In this document: positions 6,978 to 63,036 of the stretch, piece by piece | Position numbering within the stretch: position 1 is the first letter of the stretch | How the letters are laid out: the number at the start of each line of letters is the position of its first letter | NCBI GenBank assembly: GCA_020846775.1 | Contig: JADLDG010000023.1 | Location: 75,298-139,297 of the forward strand | Origin: Nitrospirota bacterium | Lineage (GTDB): Bacteria; Nitrospirota; 9FT-COMBO-42-15; HDB-SIOI813 | DNA: 64,000 bases | Direction: 5' to 3' | The notes under the pieces: generated by a model | What the model was told of the DNA's origin: nothing | Seen by the model: only the letters and a program-made list of their open reading frames with translations | Database searches by the model: none | Made by a program: the position numbers and the translations under genes

Positions 6978-8963
6978 TTAAAAGAAATAGTCAACATCCC
7001 GTTCGTTCCGCATCCTCTTTCTGACTTTAAATATATGCACAGGGGACTTATGTGGATTTAGTTCCACATAATTTCTGTCTCCCTGCCAGATGTATTTTTC
7101 ATCGCTTAACAGGTCATGAACCATATATGGGTGATCCGGTTCTATCCCAAATTCATTAACAGGAACATTTACCCAGCCTGATTGTGTATTATATGGGTCC
7201 AGGCTGATAGCGACAATAATAATATTAGACAGGTCCTCACTGGTCTTTCCAAAAAAGAGTATATTGTCATTATCAACTACATAGAAATTAAGATTATTTG
7301 TCAATTGAAGCGCCGGATTTTCCTTCCTTGCAAGATTGACCCTTGAAATAAAATCTCTGATGTTGCCAGGCTTGTTCCTGTCCCACTTTTTAATCTCATA
7401 CTTCTCTGAATCCACGTACTCTTCCCGACCCGGAAGTGCATCACTTATGCACAATTCAAAGGCCGGGCCGTATATACCGCAATTTGATGAAAGGGTTGCT
7501 GCGATGACATACCTTATCATGAAAACCGGCCTTCCACCATTCTGAAGATGCTCCGGAAGGATGTCCGGAGTATTCGGCCAGAAGTTGGGTCTGAAATATT
7601 CTCTCACCTCTGTCTTTGTCAGCTCAGTCAGATATTCAATAATCTCTTTCTTCGTATTTCGCCAGGTAATGTATGTATAAGACTGGGTAAAGCCGGTCTT
7701 GGCAAGTCTGTACATGACCTTTGGCCTGGTAAATGCTTCCGCAAGAAAGATTACCTCCGGATAATCACTCCTGATTTCTCTTATCAGCCACTCCCAAAAC
7801 GGGAAGGGTTTGGTATGGGGATTATCAACCCTGAAAATCCTGATACCCTTATCAATCCAGAAGAGGAATATCTCCTTTAACTCATTCCACAGCTCATACC
7901 ATTCCTCCGATTCAAAATTCAGTGGAAGGATATCTTCATATTTTTTAGGAGGGTTTTCAGCATACTGTACTGTTCCGTCCGGCCTCCACGTAAACCAATT
8001 GCCATGCTTTTTTACATAAGGATGATCGGGGGCGCACTGGATTGCTATATCCATTGCAATTTCAACATTGAAATCCTTTGCCCTGCGTACCAGTTTCTCG
8101 AAGTCATCAATTGTGCCTAGAAGTGGAGAAACAGACTTATGTCCCCCTTCGTCAGAACCAATCGCCCACGGACTGCCATAATCGTCTTTTCCTGCAACAG
8201 TTGAATTGTTTTTACCTTTTCTCTTTATCTTCCCGATAGGGTGGATCGGAGCCAGATACATTACATCAAAACCCATCCCGGCAATGTCAGGCAGCAGGGC
8301 CTCACAATCCTTGAATGTGCCGTGAAGCTGAGACCCGGTACCCGATGACCTGGGGAACAGTTCATACCATGTGCTGAAAAGGGCCTTCTTCCTGTCAACT
8401 GAAACAGAATATTCTCTGTGGCAGGTTGTAGCACGATCCCTGTCGTAATATGTCTGCAACAATTTCATAAGCTCATCATTCCCAGCAAGCGATAGGATCT
8501 CTTTTGTCTCTTTCATCCTGCTGATTGCCTTTGCCCATTCCTTTAGTCTTTTCTTTTCTTCGCCTTTTGCCCTTGATGCGGCGCTATTAATATGTCCGGG
8601 GCCGATTAATAAATCTACTTCTATATTGACGCCAGCATCAATTTTTTTCCCAAGGTCATGCAGCCAGGTTAAATAATGGTCAATTTGACCGCGGATAGTA
8701 TAATGGTACATACCGATGTCTTCTACCGAAAACACCCCTTCCCACCTGTCATTTCCAACAGGCCTCATTGTCATTTCGAGCCACTCTTTGTCGCCAGGTC
8801 CCCTGTACATTAGAAGTGCTGAAACCTCATCATGACCGTCAGCATATATATCAGCATACACAAACACCTTGTCTCCGCATATGCGTTTGATTGGAAATTC
8901 TCCTCCATTTATCTCCGGTTCAACATTCTCTATAACTATTCGTTTTTTTCCATCTAAAGTCAT
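6978..8963 (-). CDS. glgE: Alpha-1,4-glucan:maltose-1-phosphate maltosyltransferase
   Basis: 661 aa GH13_3 GlgE-like sequence (…MYLAPIHPIG…, FRVDNPHTKPF…, FLAEAFT…). Synteny with treS-mak supports the GlgE pathway. Confidence 0.85.
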   Translation of the reverse strand: MTLDGKKRIVIENVEPEINGGEFPIKRICGDKVFVYADIYADGHDEVSALLMYRGPGDKEWLEMTMRPVGNDRWEGVFSVEDIGMYHYTIRGQIDHYLTWLHDLGKKIDAGVNIEVDLLIGPGHINSAASRAKGEEKKRLKEWAKAISRMKETKEILSLAGNDELMKLLQTYYDRDRATTCHREYSVSVDRKKALFSTWYELFPRSSGTGSQLHGTFKDCEALLPDIAGMGFDVMYLAPIHPIGKIKRKGKNNSTVAGKDDYGSPWAIGSDEGGHKSVSPLLGTIDDFEKLVRRAKDFNVEIAMDIAIQCAPDHPYVKKHGNWFTWRPDGTVQYAENPPKKYEDILPLNFESEEWYELWNELKEIFLFWIDKGIRIFRVDNPHTKPFPFWEWLIREIRSDYPEVIFLAEAFTRPKVMYRLAKTGFTQSYTYITWRNTKKEIIEYLTELTKTEVREYFRPNFWPNTPDILPEHLQNGGRPVFMIRYVIAATLSSNCGIYGPAFELCISDALPGREEYVDSEKYEIKKWDRNKPGNIRDFISRVNLARKENPALQLTNNLNFYVVDNDNILFFGKTSEDLSNIIIVAISLDPYNTQSGWVNVPVNEFGIEPDHPYMVHDLLSDEKYIWQGDRNYVELNPHKSPVHIFKVRKRMRNERDVDYFF

Positions 8964-23601: not shown

Positions 23602-23623
23602 GATGATAATCCAAAGTTATTAT

Positions 23624-23699
23624 GGTCGGGGCGAGAGGATTTGAACCTCCGGCCCCATCGTCCCGAACGATGTGCGCTACCAGTCTGCGCTACGCCCCG
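23624..23699 (-). tRNA. tRNA-Pro (anticodon CGG)
   Basis: 76 nt cloverleaf read from the minus strand. Acceptor CGGGGCG/CGCCCCG, D arm GCGC-AGACTGGTA-GCGC, anticodon arm CATCG-TTCGGGA-CGATG (CGG), T arm GGAGG-TTCAAAT-CCTCT. Encoded ACCA 3' end. Confidence 0.9.
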
Positions 23700-23707
23700 A
23701 CATTTAG

Positions 23708-23830
23708 TTTACGTTGAAAAGCACTCATCTGCGGCGTCAGACGGGCAGATTTGAGATTCAACGTACCATAAAGTACGCCTCATCTCAAATCTGCCCGTCT
23801 TCCTTGCAGCTAAGCACTTTTGAACGTAAA
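23708..23830 (-). other. Structured tRNA 5'-leader element, copy A (nested long hairpin between a promoter and tRNA-Pro)
   Basis: Outer stem TTTACGTTCAAAAG / CTTTTCAACGTAAA (minus-strand sense, one C·C mismatch). Inner perfect 18-bp stem GACGGGCAGATTTGAGAT / ATCTCAAATCTGCCCGTC. Apical mini-hairpin CGTAC-N6-GTACG. Conserved internal-loop blocks TGCAAGGAAG and CTGACGCCGCA. A homologous copy lies at 62868-62992. Confidence 0.5.
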
Positions 23831-23865
23831 CTCCTTCATGCTGATGCTGTTTTTTATTGATCCTT

Positions 23866-23894
23866 ATAATAATTGAGCGGGGTATTGTTGTCAA
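23866..23894 (-). promoter_or_regulatory. Sigma70-like promoter for the tRNA-Pro leader/tRNA transcript
   Basis: On the minus strand, TTGACA (23894-23889), a 17-nt spacer, then TATTAT (23871-23866). The -35 hexamer overlaps the alanine dehydrogenase stop codon. Confidence 0.45.
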
Positions 23895-33979: not shown

Positions 33980-34089
33980 AAAAAATCCCCAAGGCCAATG
34001 ATAACGACCCTGAGGATTGCACCCTGCTTCTTCACCCAAAAGGTTAGACTATGCAACCTCTCGTCCGGAGGTTACAATACTCTGTAGTT

Positions 34090-34224
34090 CAGGCAGGTCT
34101 TCTGGTTTATGGATCAACCTACTGACTGCGCCTTCCCGGGAGTCTCAACACCCCAGTGGCAATTCGCAGCTATCGTCCCCATTCACAGCGGCGGGACCAC
34201 CCCTGATTTCCACAGGGTTCCCTC
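34090..34224 (-). promoter_or_regulatory. Cobalamin (AdoCbl) riboswitch aptamer in the btuF-operon leader
   Basis: Minus-strand RNA: AGGGAACCCUGUGGAAAUCAGGGGUGGUCCCGCCGCUGUGAAUGGGGACGAUAGCUGCGAAUUGCCACUGG…GGGAAGGCG…CAGAAGACCUGCC. Contains the conserved GGUGRAAxUCC-like, CCCGCCxCUGU, GCCACUG and B12-box (…AGACCUGCC) elements in canonical order. A TTGACA-17-TTATAA promoter at 34298-34270 lies upstream. Confidence 0.85.
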
Positions 34225-34334
34225 TTGGCTTAGAACTCATCATTCAAGCACACCTGATTTATACTGTATACTTATAAAGCAGATAATGAGTATCTGTCAA
34301 GTTATTTTATTAATTAGATAGTGCGTTACTTGAG

Positions 34335-34963: not shown

Positions 34964-35101
34964 GGAAATAAAAAAGCCCATTACCACCAGATGGGTAATG
35001 GGCTTTAGGTCCATTAGACACTTCGGCTGCCCCGCTACCCTCATTTATGAGGGCCGGTGGCTATGCGTCCTACCGTTGCCGGTAGTTTGCTCTTATCGGT
35101 G
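34964..35101 (-). promoter_or_regulatory. c-di-GMP-I (GEMM) riboswitch aptamer (35101-35019) plus intrinsic terminator expression platform (35006-34964)
   Basis: Minus-strand RNA: CACCGAUAAGAGCAAAC-UACCG-GCAA-CGGUA-GGACGCAUAGCC-ACCGGCCCUCAUAAAUGAGGGUAGCGGGGCAGCCGAAGUG. Matches GEMM-I hallmarks (GCAAAC, GNRA-capped P1b, GGACGCAAAGCC, GGUAGCGGGG…ACCGA) and resembles the Vc2 riboswitch as recalled. Followed by GCCCAUUACC-N7-GGUAAUGGGC-UUUUUUAUUU, then SD and ATG. Confidence 0.7.
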
Positions 35102-35695: not shown

Positions 35696-35710
35696 TACAC
35701 TCCTCCCATT

Positions 35711-35786
35711 GGCTCCCCGGGCAGGGCTCGAACCTGCGACCTAGCGGTTAACAGCCGCTCGCTCTGCCTATTGAGCTACCGGGGAT
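35711..35786 (-). tRNA. tRNA-Asn (anticodon GTT)
   Basis: 76 nt. Acceptor TCCCCGG/CCGGGGA, D arm GCTC-AATAGGCA-GAGC, anticodon arm AGCGG-CTGTTAA-CCGCT (GUU), T arm GCAGG-TTCGAGC-CCTGC, encoded GCCA end. Confidence 0.9.
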
Positions 35787-58514: not shown

Positions 58515-58620
58515 AAAAAAAAACCTTCTCACGGTTTTGGCCGAAAAGAAGGTTATCAATAGTATTATTTGTGTATTTAATTGGCATTATCTGATCCTTT
58601 TTAGCCTCGCAGGGCTAAAT
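58515..58620 (-). promoter_or_regulatory. PyrR-type transcription attenuator in the pyrR leader (binding-loop hairpin plus intrinsic terminator)
   Basis: Minus-strand RNA has the hairpin UUUAGCCCUGCGAGGCUAAA, whose loop resembles the PyrR binding-loop consensus (…CCxGxGAGGCU). Downstream is AACCUUCU-N17-AGAAGGUU followed by U9 (58554-58515), directly before the pyrR SD. Confidence 0.5.
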
Positions 58621-58722
58621 TAAAGGTTTAGTTTAATTTAAACTAAACAGAATTTGTTGTCAACACCGGATTCAGAAGATTACTCGGCTGCCAAATCCAT
58701 ATATTTCAACCGAATAAACCAC

Positions 58723-62787: not shown

Positions 62788-62864
62788 TGGTGGCGGTGCA
62801 GGGAATCGAACCCCGGACAGGAGGCTTATGAAACCTCTGCTCTAGCCGACTGAGCTACACCGCC
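62788..62864 (-). tRNA. tRNA-Met (anticodon CAT; elongator type, tRNA-Ile2 (lysidine-modified CAT) not excluded)
   Basis: 77 nt. Acceptor GGCGGTG/CACCGCC, D arm GCTC-AGTCGGCTA-GAGC, anticodon arm GAGGT-TTCATAA-GCCTC (CAU), T arm CGGGG-TTCGATT-CCCTG, encoded ACCA. No initiator signatures (1:72 is paired, no GGG/CCC anticodon stem). Confidence 0.85.
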
Positions 62865-62867
62865 GGG

Positions 62868-62992
62868 ATTTACGCTGAAAAAGGCCCACTTGCGGCGTCA
62901 GGACATGATATTTGAGCTTCAACGTACAACACAGTACGCCTCAGCTCAAATATCATGTCCTTCCTTGCAATTGGACCTTTTTGAGCGTAAAT
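62868..62992 (-). other. Structured tRNA 5'-leader element, copy B (homolog of 23708-23830), abutting the tRNA-Met 5' end
   Basis: Outer stem ATTTACGCTCAAAAAGG / CCTTTTTCAGCGTAAAT (minus sense; same C·C mismatch position as copy A; T:A to C:G covariation). Inner perfect 18-bp stem GGACATGATATTTGAGCT / AGCTCAAATATCATGTCC (7 compensatory changes versus copy A). Same apical CGTAC-N6-GTACG hairpin and conserved TGCAAGGAAG / CTGACGCCGCA blocks. Confidence 0.5.
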
Positions 62993-63036
62993 CCATGCCA
63001 TCTGAAACTATTATTTCAAATCGCCGTGCAGCATAG

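Follow-up and report, generated by a model that had tools for sequence, protein, structure and literature searches.

The two long hairpins that precede tRNA genes in the 64-kb stretch of Nitrospirota DNA analysed here (the window, 64,000 nt) are probably resident copies of a widespread, non-autonomous and insertion-polymorphic repeat of the REP/REPIN/MITE kind, passively co-transcribed with the tRNAs and removed by RNase P. The family to which they belong is uncatalogued and structurally constrained; it is not a new class of regulatory RNA. Its conserved loop, which spans phyla, and its strictly polar placement at tRNA +1 positions and stop codons are new and testable. We propose that copies multiply within genomes and settle in tolerated extragenic positions. 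Their polarity is fixed: one foot of the hairpin (the block-2 foot, described below) abuts either the +1 of a tRNA or tmRNA, with the element in sense orientation, or the stop codon of a protein gene, with the element in antisense orientation and the ORF intact. RNase P would release the element together with the 5′ leader, and the element would have no dedicated role in tRNA expression. The hairpin itself may be conserved because a trans-acting enzyme (a RAYT/IS200-type Y1 HUH transposase, by analogy) recognises one folded strand, possibly with help from template switching that corrects the palindrome.

Both copies are rods of about 127 nt on the minus strand, which is the sense strand of the tRNAs, and both were recognised as complete by their fold and their covariance-model score. 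Copy A (23706-23832) lies in the leader of tRNA-Pro(CGG) (23623-23699, minus strand), whose +1 is 6 nt 3′ of the hairpin foot; copy B (62866-62994) lies in the leader of tRNA-Met(CAT) (62788-62864, minus strand), whose +1 is only 1 nt 3′ of the foot. The minimum free energies (MFE) are -80.3 and -83.7 kcal/mol (z = -14.8 and -13.7), respectively in copies A and B, and none of 200 shuffled sequences folded equally well in either case. Trimmed to the hairpin, the two copies have an MFE of -79.2 and -82.9 kcal/mol and score 116.6 and 121.3 bits against the covariance model. Each contains two conserved blocks: block 1, UGCAAGGAAG (23799-23808 in copy A, 62960-62969 in copy B, minus strand), and block 2, CUGACGCCGCA (23730-23740 and 62891-62901, minus strand), which are the 5′ and 3′ strands of a conserved asymmetric internal loop, J1. 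The outer helix of the window copies consists of 10 + 11 bp flanking a C.C mismatch, plus a 4-bp UGC/GCA helix. Their inner helix has 19 bp, made up of 17 variable pairs and two block pairs, and leads through a GA/GA 2x2 loop to an apical hairpin; these parts, counting the 17 variable pairs, occupy 23741-23798 (minus strand) in copy A, with the apical part, GGCGUAC-UUUAUG-GUACGUU, at 23760-23779 (minus strand). Both blocks, the GA/GA loop and the apical hairpin are common to the two copies. By comparison, eight of the 17 variable pairs of the inner helix differ between them, all eight by compensated changes, and several outer-stem pairs differ too.

An earlier note on this DNA had described the two hairpins on this strand, with the same architecture and the same conserved blocks in both, and the folds confirm this. 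Its extents were right as to place; full pairing, however, runs from 23832 to 23706 and from 62994 to 62866, and the 23708-23830 that it gave is the TTTACG...CGTAAA core. The folds also revise its 14-bp outer stem and 18-bp inner stem to the helices given above, its seven compensated differences in the inner stem to eight and its one outer-stem difference to several, and its spacing of 8 nt between outer stem and tRNA-Pro +1 to 6 nt. The promoter that it had seen, with a -35 box overlapping the ald stop codon, is indeed present: a sigma-70-type TTGACA-17-TATTAT (23866-23894, minus strand) scored 11/12 in our scan, and since this near-consensus promoter is upstream, copy A is inside the transcribed leader of tRNA-Pro. 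The tRNA-Met promoter is weaker and falls below the cut-off of the scan. Lying between the tRNA promoters and the mature tRNAs, the window copies must be transcribed as part of the pre-tRNAs.

The window has three tRNAs, of which two carry the element. In the 64 kb, TGCAAGGAAG and CTGACGCCGCA are confined to copies A and B, and as a covariance-model scan gave no third copy, the remaining tRNA-Asn (35710-35785) is without one. Other RNAs of the window reached the Rfam gathering score: a cobalamin riboswitch (34075-34272, minus strand, 102.8 bits), a c-di-GMP-I riboswitch just downstream of tRNA-Asn (35022-35101, minus strand, 65.3 bits) and a PyrR binding site (58515-58630, minus strand, 57.1 bits). 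For the element, a comparison of the window and 33 related loci with Rfam 15, using gathering as well as permissive thresholds, returned only tRNAs and sub-threshold miRNA-like matches, in agreement with the earlier note, which did not recognise it as a described RNA family. Searches of the full-text literature with the block sequences and descriptive terms gave nothing relevant besides the REP literature.

Across the family, a long imperfect hairpin of some 125-135 nt is conserved. The outer helix (20-30 bp) is variable in sequence, with subfamily-specific mismatches, and frequently contains a tandem G.A loop (...AGAU-GC / GC-AGAU...) followed by a 3-bp UGC/GCA helix. Loop J1 (5′-UGCAAGGAAG / 5′-CUGACGCCGCA) is nearly invariant. 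Beyond it come an inner helix of about 19 bp, in which purine-rich internal loops are common, the GA/GA loop, which adjoins a conserved G.U pair (64/86 sequences), and an apical helix of 6-8 bp closed by a loop of 3-7 nt. It should be noted that the blocks were required when copies were collected, which accounts in part for their invariance; copies found only by the model show block variants, that of the Bacillota MAG L126 (GGAAA/CUUGAC) being a compensated pair. A second J1 allele, AAGG-CGC / GCG-CAACGC, is present at four loci (L054 801-935, minus strand; L107 3274-3410, plus strand; L043 4063-4208; L061 1890-2060), in the same genomes as the main allele and in three phyla. Some second-allele copies swap UGC/GCA for GGC/GCC, and in L107 the main and second types lie 48 nt apart in inverted orientation.

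The search for further copies with a covariance model, which had been suggested as a check, yielded 87 hits in the family. Pairing was found in 81.1% of cells on these hits, vs. 32-42% with slid partners, the covariation score was 0.60 vs. 0.12-0.16 in the slid controls, and both partners vary in 45 of the 50 pairs. Compensatory change between the two window copies had been taken as a sign of selection on the structure, and it does reflect a real structure that is maintained. Long DNA palindromes can, however, stay symmetric through template switching, and compensatory change alone is for this reason not proof of selection on an RNA.

The family turned out to be large. The pattern TGCAAGGAAG-N50-70-CTGACGCCGCA matches at least 120 genome stretches from about 10 phyla, and its range takes in at least Nitrospirota, Gammaproteobacteria, Acidobacteriota (Thermoanaerobaculia), Planctomycetota (Brocadiaceae), Desulfobacterota (Desulfovibrionaceae, Desulfomicrobium), Bacteroidota, Bacillota (Oscillospiraceae and others), Saccharibacteria, Dormibacterota, Deferribacterota and Bradymonadales. 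The two-block pattern also matches 2-5 prophage contigs. The 139 exact-pattern copies fall into 46 clusters of <80% identity to one another, all of which fold as the same rod. Genomes have from 2 to >55 copies, all intergenic, and several per genome are the rule. What the earlier note had taken for a two-member element specific to tRNA leaders is thus a multi-copy family found in about 10 phyla and in prophages, mostly away from tRNAs. Among the options it listed, a tRNA-targeting miniature repeat comes closest to the evidence. The 120 matches listed (L007-L126) are all MAGs or MAG-like bins, with no cultured isolate among them, and BLAST with three subfamily representatives gave no match in INPHARED phages, PLSDB plasmids or E. 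coli genomes. We found no recurrent protein family next to the element and no autonomous version with the blocks 0.3-3 kb apart. One 49-kb prophage (IMGVR_UViG_2901948472_000007; L006, L215, L253) carries three copies; two of them are followed, 11 nt from the hairpin foot, by paralogous genes that begin MKLLTFEDGIVRIDGE.

Orthologous loci provide a view of how the element comes and goes. Many metagenomic relatives share the gene order ald-tRNAPro-sigma. The element is present at this locus in L128-L131 (76-85% identity in the sigma protein) and absent from the closest relative, L127 (86%), in which a leader of 26 nt comes after the same promoter; L132-L140 also lack it at tRNA-Pro, and the tRNA is kept there as in L127. 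The promoter is conserved in L127, L129 and L130, that is, in relatives both with and without the element. Since the orthologous tRNA-Pro leader of L127 is empty, a dedicated role for the element at the tRNA is unlikely. The tRNA-Met copy is kept in L207, with about eight differences, including two fully compensated double changes. In L129, a truncated copy (2040-2100) is followed by the full copy adjoining tRNA-Pro, and the tRNA-Met locus of L207 has a 57-nt insertion with a remnant of the 5′ arm upstream (about 7560-7620). Partial copies directly upstream of full tRNA-linked ones were also seen in L098 (before 4574) and L035 (about 960-990). Such partial copies suggest either repeated insertion at one spot or a palindrome-driven rearrangement. 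Tandem arrays occur in L058, L093, L035, L067 and L126, and further remnants or tandem copies include those of L098 and L114. Target duplications outside the gammaproteobacterial subfamilies were not above control, only L122 and L085 showing direct repeats of 7-8 bp; the Nitrospirota subfamily of the window likewise has no target duplication above control, and its termini are variable. L210 (1-599), a relative of the window organism, has a Cas6-family gene upstream of the UPF0182 gene; the genes around UPF0182 otherwise show little conservation of order.

The array in L126 (5237-6218) has a different composition, with 3.6 diverged units of 276 bp directly after intact genes for tRNA-Gly and tRNA-Thr. 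A unit is made up of the hairpin element, two-thirds of tRNA-Thr from its 3′ side, in which the anticodon loop has 8 nt, and a distinct terminator of its own, and the outer helix of the element is an inverted copy of tRNA positions ~21-43. This looks like serial integration into a tRNA gene or a hairpin scaffolded on a tRNA.

In the sponge-symbiont MAG WLWT01, >55 copies lie in both orientations, bounded by GGGCRCCTCTAAAAAT inverted ends and by target duplications of 4-6 bp. The subfamily with terminal inverted repeats and target duplications comprises WLWT01, other Gammaproteobacteria and Nitrospirales. In 18 WLWT01 copies collected without the pattern, J1 has diverged by 3.5-5.6%, vs. 5-6% elsewhere in the element, and this even divergence, J1 included, implies neutral decay after a burst in WLWT01. 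No replichore orientation pattern was seen in the 4.7-Mb WLWT01 scaffold. The same genome also has short elements with GGGCACCTCTAA(A/C)AAT inverted ends and unrelated internal sequence (L049 4147-4246; L049 3890-4150; L022 5480-5640). Because the ends are shared with unrelated cargo, they belong to a separate transposon system, and the conserved core is not the part that was mobilised. We also noted an insert of about 215 bp in the apical loop of one WLWT01 copy (L116), with CACTGCTGTCCC-type ends and AGGTGAT duplicated; this small element, different from the hairpin, is found again elsewhere in WLWT01 (L076 4290-4445). ORFs of IS630-like transposases recur near WLWT01 copies (L011, L013, L104 and L113, e.g. 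L113 5789-6841).

These properties allow a comparison with MITEs (Correia/CREE, ERIC, RUP, Nezha), which are likewise short non-coding inverted repeats that form hairpins when transcribed. The WLWT01-type subfamily shares with them its terminal inverted repeats, its 4-6-bp target duplications and its copy number. The window subfamily differs in having neither a detectable target duplication nor conserved termini, and in WLWT01 the ends that also flank unrelated cargo make the conserved core look like a passenger. A DDE-type MITE was rejected for the window subfamily, for which target duplications were not above control; the gammaproteobacterial subfamily does show them.

Among known kinds, the GTAG-REP/REPIN extragenic palindromes come closest. 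A REP is normally confined to one species or genus and conserved at its ends; the conserved part here is instead a central loop found in about 10 phyla, and this hints at a constraint that reaches beyond a single transposase lineage. To our knowledge, placement in sense orientation 1-7 nt before the +1 of a tRNA or tmRNA is not a described property of REPs. REPINs are doublets of REPs that form hairpins, are thought to be mobilised by RAYTs and cluster by adjacent insertion (PMC3116915), while GTAG-tagged REPs form head-to-head dimers able to fold into one large stem-loop (PMC3116915, PMC3733652). The present family resembles both in being extragenic and multi-copy, with a hairpin of at least about 100 nt built from two inverted halves with compensatory pairing; in its clusters and tandem arrays formed by insertion beside existing copies, with singlet remnants; and in its location at gene 3′ ends and in operon spacers, where the flanking ORF takes its stop codon from a (G)TAG at the foot. 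GTAG is, however, found at only about 13% of the block-2 feet of this family: it lies within 16 nt of the block-2 foot in 9/71 copies (vs. 2.9% in the background, p = 2e-4) and within 16 nt of the block-1 foot in 5/71, most copies having no GTAG at either foot. In a weak test, IS200 TnpA and YafM sequences gave no RAYT or Y1 transposase match in 1.7 Mb of loci, which are small parts of the genomes, and the ORFs between paired copies are housekeeping genes with no RAYT/Y1 transposase among them. By analogy, then, the family would work like a REPIN or a GTAG-REP dimer. Membership is not established, because GTAG is mostly absent, no Y1/RAYT match was obtained, the loop crosses phyla and copies adjoin tRNAs. 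We may speculate that U8-A9-G10 and the D-arm of a tRNA, which resemble the "(G)TAG + hairpin" head of a REP, might attract the same machinery. The junction in the L126 array falls at the U8-A9-G10/D-arm point of the tRNA.

The placement at tRNAs is strictly polar. Nine copies, seven of them independent, have their block-2 foot 1-7 nt before the 5′ end of a tRNA or tmRNA, and all nine are in sense orientation: those before tRNA-Pro and tRNA-Met of the window, tRNA-Asp in L021, tRNA-Phe in L098, the tmRNA in L037, tRNA-Met in L009 and L109 and tRNA-Ala in L035 and L039. We estimate that random intergenic insertion would place well under 0.1% of copies in this way. Every downstream partner is a substrate of RNase P, and against the reading as a repeat, the 9/9 sense orientation and the spacing fit an RNA whose 3′ end is made by RNase P at least as well. 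The family could accordingly consist of functional structured small RNAs that act in trans through a conserved partner. The tRNA-linked copies would then be the expressed genes, borrowing tRNA promoters and acquiring their 3′ end from the RNase P cut at +1, and the other copies would be dead, SINE-like offspring, with which the even decay in WLWT01 is in keeping.

We consider this second explanation unlikely, although several features speak for it. Loop J1, the GA/GA loops and the G.U pair are conserved while every helix covaries. Four Nitrospirota loci have a three-way-junction variant, with an optional extra covarying hairpin, ACCCRUUGC...GCAAYGGGU, 3′ of GCCGCA (L103 1281-1450; L030 560-732; L096 3100-3250; L054 4001-4170). 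The TGCAAGGAAG strand is the better folder in 36 of 42 representatives, by 10.8 kcal/mol on average, and its mismatches are more often purine-purine than pyrimidine-pyrimidine (432 vs. 118). In the wobble-pair test of strand, on the other hand, the excess of G.U pairs on that strand (166 vs. 142 on the other) is not significant (p = 0.19). As the mismatch bias is clear and the G.U excess is not significant, the strand asymmetry is one of loop composition and not of the helices. Nor do copies away from tRNAs have a promoter at a fixed distance, and those embedded in mRNAs are mostly antisense, so that the other strand is the one most often made. The locus rpsJ-element-tRNAMet, common to the Bacteroidota L009 and L109, might have counted in favour of a conserved gene, but the two are 91% identical throughout and therefore say little about conservation. 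Helices of 19-25 perfect bp should, moreover, be substrates of RNase III, and the closest relative has the empty tRNA-Pro leader described above. More broadly, it is rather unlikely that the rod is a genuine ligand of a conserved protein of the cell or of a mobile element, either as a new, phylum-spanning small RNA transcribed from tRNA promoters and released by RNase P or as a new class of structure-guided single-strand hairpin transposon, with polar homing to the 5′ ends of tRNAs and to stop codons.

A second set of placements concerns protein genes. Of 71 distinct copies, 32 have a long opposite-strand ORF that stops about 5 nt or less from the block-2 foot, vs. 7 in the mirror arrangement. 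The stop codon at the foot is TAG in 20 of the 29 listed cases, and the foot overlaps or abuts the stop codon, at -6 to +5 nt, in most of the 29. The flanking ORFs are intact: GyrB in L031 ends ...NLDV, and an N[LIV]D[VI] end is found in 118 of 120 homologues. A protein search for relatives with an empty gyrB site gave only ones of ≤59% identity. In 8-11 operons, the element exactly spans the distance from a stop codon to the next Shine-Dalgarno sequence, including prophage late operons. Among prophage examples, copies lie between portal and MuF genes in L005, between sheath and tube genes in L238 and after the tape-measure gene in L006 and L215. Placement by the block-2 foot thus makes the element antisense in mRNAs and sense before tRNAs.

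Such positions are what one might expect if the element acted in cis on the RNA wherever it is transcribed, as some REPs do, a benefit to the host explaining its retention. At stop codons, the very stable hairpin would stall or modulate terminating ribosomes, shield the upstream mRNA from 3′ exonucleases or serve as an RNase III processing site; its part in tRNA leaders would be to insulate or process the precursor. REPs near stop codons are established to affect translation. The other established role, in mRNA stabilisation, is mentioned in PMC3733652. We nonetheless regard action in cis as improbable for this family: no U-tract follows the hairpin in either orientation, the orientation preferred at tRNAs is the opposite of that at ORFs, the element is dispensable at orthologous loci and the WLWT01 copies decay evenly. 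The weakest explanation, entertained in the earlier note, is that the leader is dedicated to tRNA-Pro and tRNA-Met and either regulates them in cis or modulates RNase P. It can point to the position between promoter and tRNA at both loci, 1-6 nt from +1, and to the two of three window tRNAs that carry the element, but it is highly improbable. The empty orthologous site largely refutes it, L127 and L132-L140 having the same tRNA and promoter without the element; copies also occur before at least six tRNA species and the tmRNA, tRNA-Asn is bare and most of the family is not near tRNAs.

The reading as a mobile repeat has some parallels in other systems. Integron attC sites, IS200/IS605 ends and the attP(+) hairpin of CTX phage also combine variable helices with conserved unpaired bases on one strand, and show polar insertion with no target duplication; such a combination would be expected where an enzyme recognises a folded single strand. 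The element differs in that it lacks RYYYAAC/GTTRRRY boxes and a cassette context and has neither an integrase nor TnpA beside it, and the likeness is one of logic only. An integron attC site as such was rejected, as the termini read GTT...AAC, in the wrong order, and cassette arrays and a neighbouring integrase were not found. The MALAT1-mascRNA pair, the tRNA-miRNA units of MHV68 and plant tRNA-snoRNA genes similarly have a structured RNA that abuts a tRNA and an end set by the tRNA-processing cut; these are eukaryotic or viral, with demonstrated products, whereas the present element is known from sequence and most of its copies have no tRNA. An intrinsic terminator was dismissed because neither foot has a U-tract after the hairpin, in both orientations, the only match of the scan being an internal 6-bp artefact. 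Reading of the sequence also led us to reject a sigma-54 or sigma-70 promoter inside the element, a small ORF led by a Shine-Dalgarno sequence, K-turn, SRP, 5S or 6S-like motifs, hammerhead or hairpin ribozyme cores, and sso or Frpo single-strand origins or promoters. A retron msr/msd was rejected since no RT is nearby.

If the interpretation as a mobile repeat is right, the family would be a large, uncatalogued group of structured repeats in mostly uncultured lineages, among them Nitrospirota, Thermoanaerobaculia, anammox bacteria, Saccharibacteria, gut Desulfovibrionaceae and Oscillospiraceae and sponge symbionts. Screens based on covariation would mis-score these repeats as novel regulatory RNAs. 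The fixed polarity, with respect to tRNA +1, stop codons and intact ORFs, would amount to a clear rule of targeting or selection. A loop shared across phyla would be unusual in a REP-like element, and its recogniser could be a new enzyme acting on single-stranded DNA or RNA. Such repeats would also break metagenome assemblies. Indeed, the ends of several contigs (L040, L091, L123, L208 and L128) fall within the element or beside it, from which it appears that the repeat does so.
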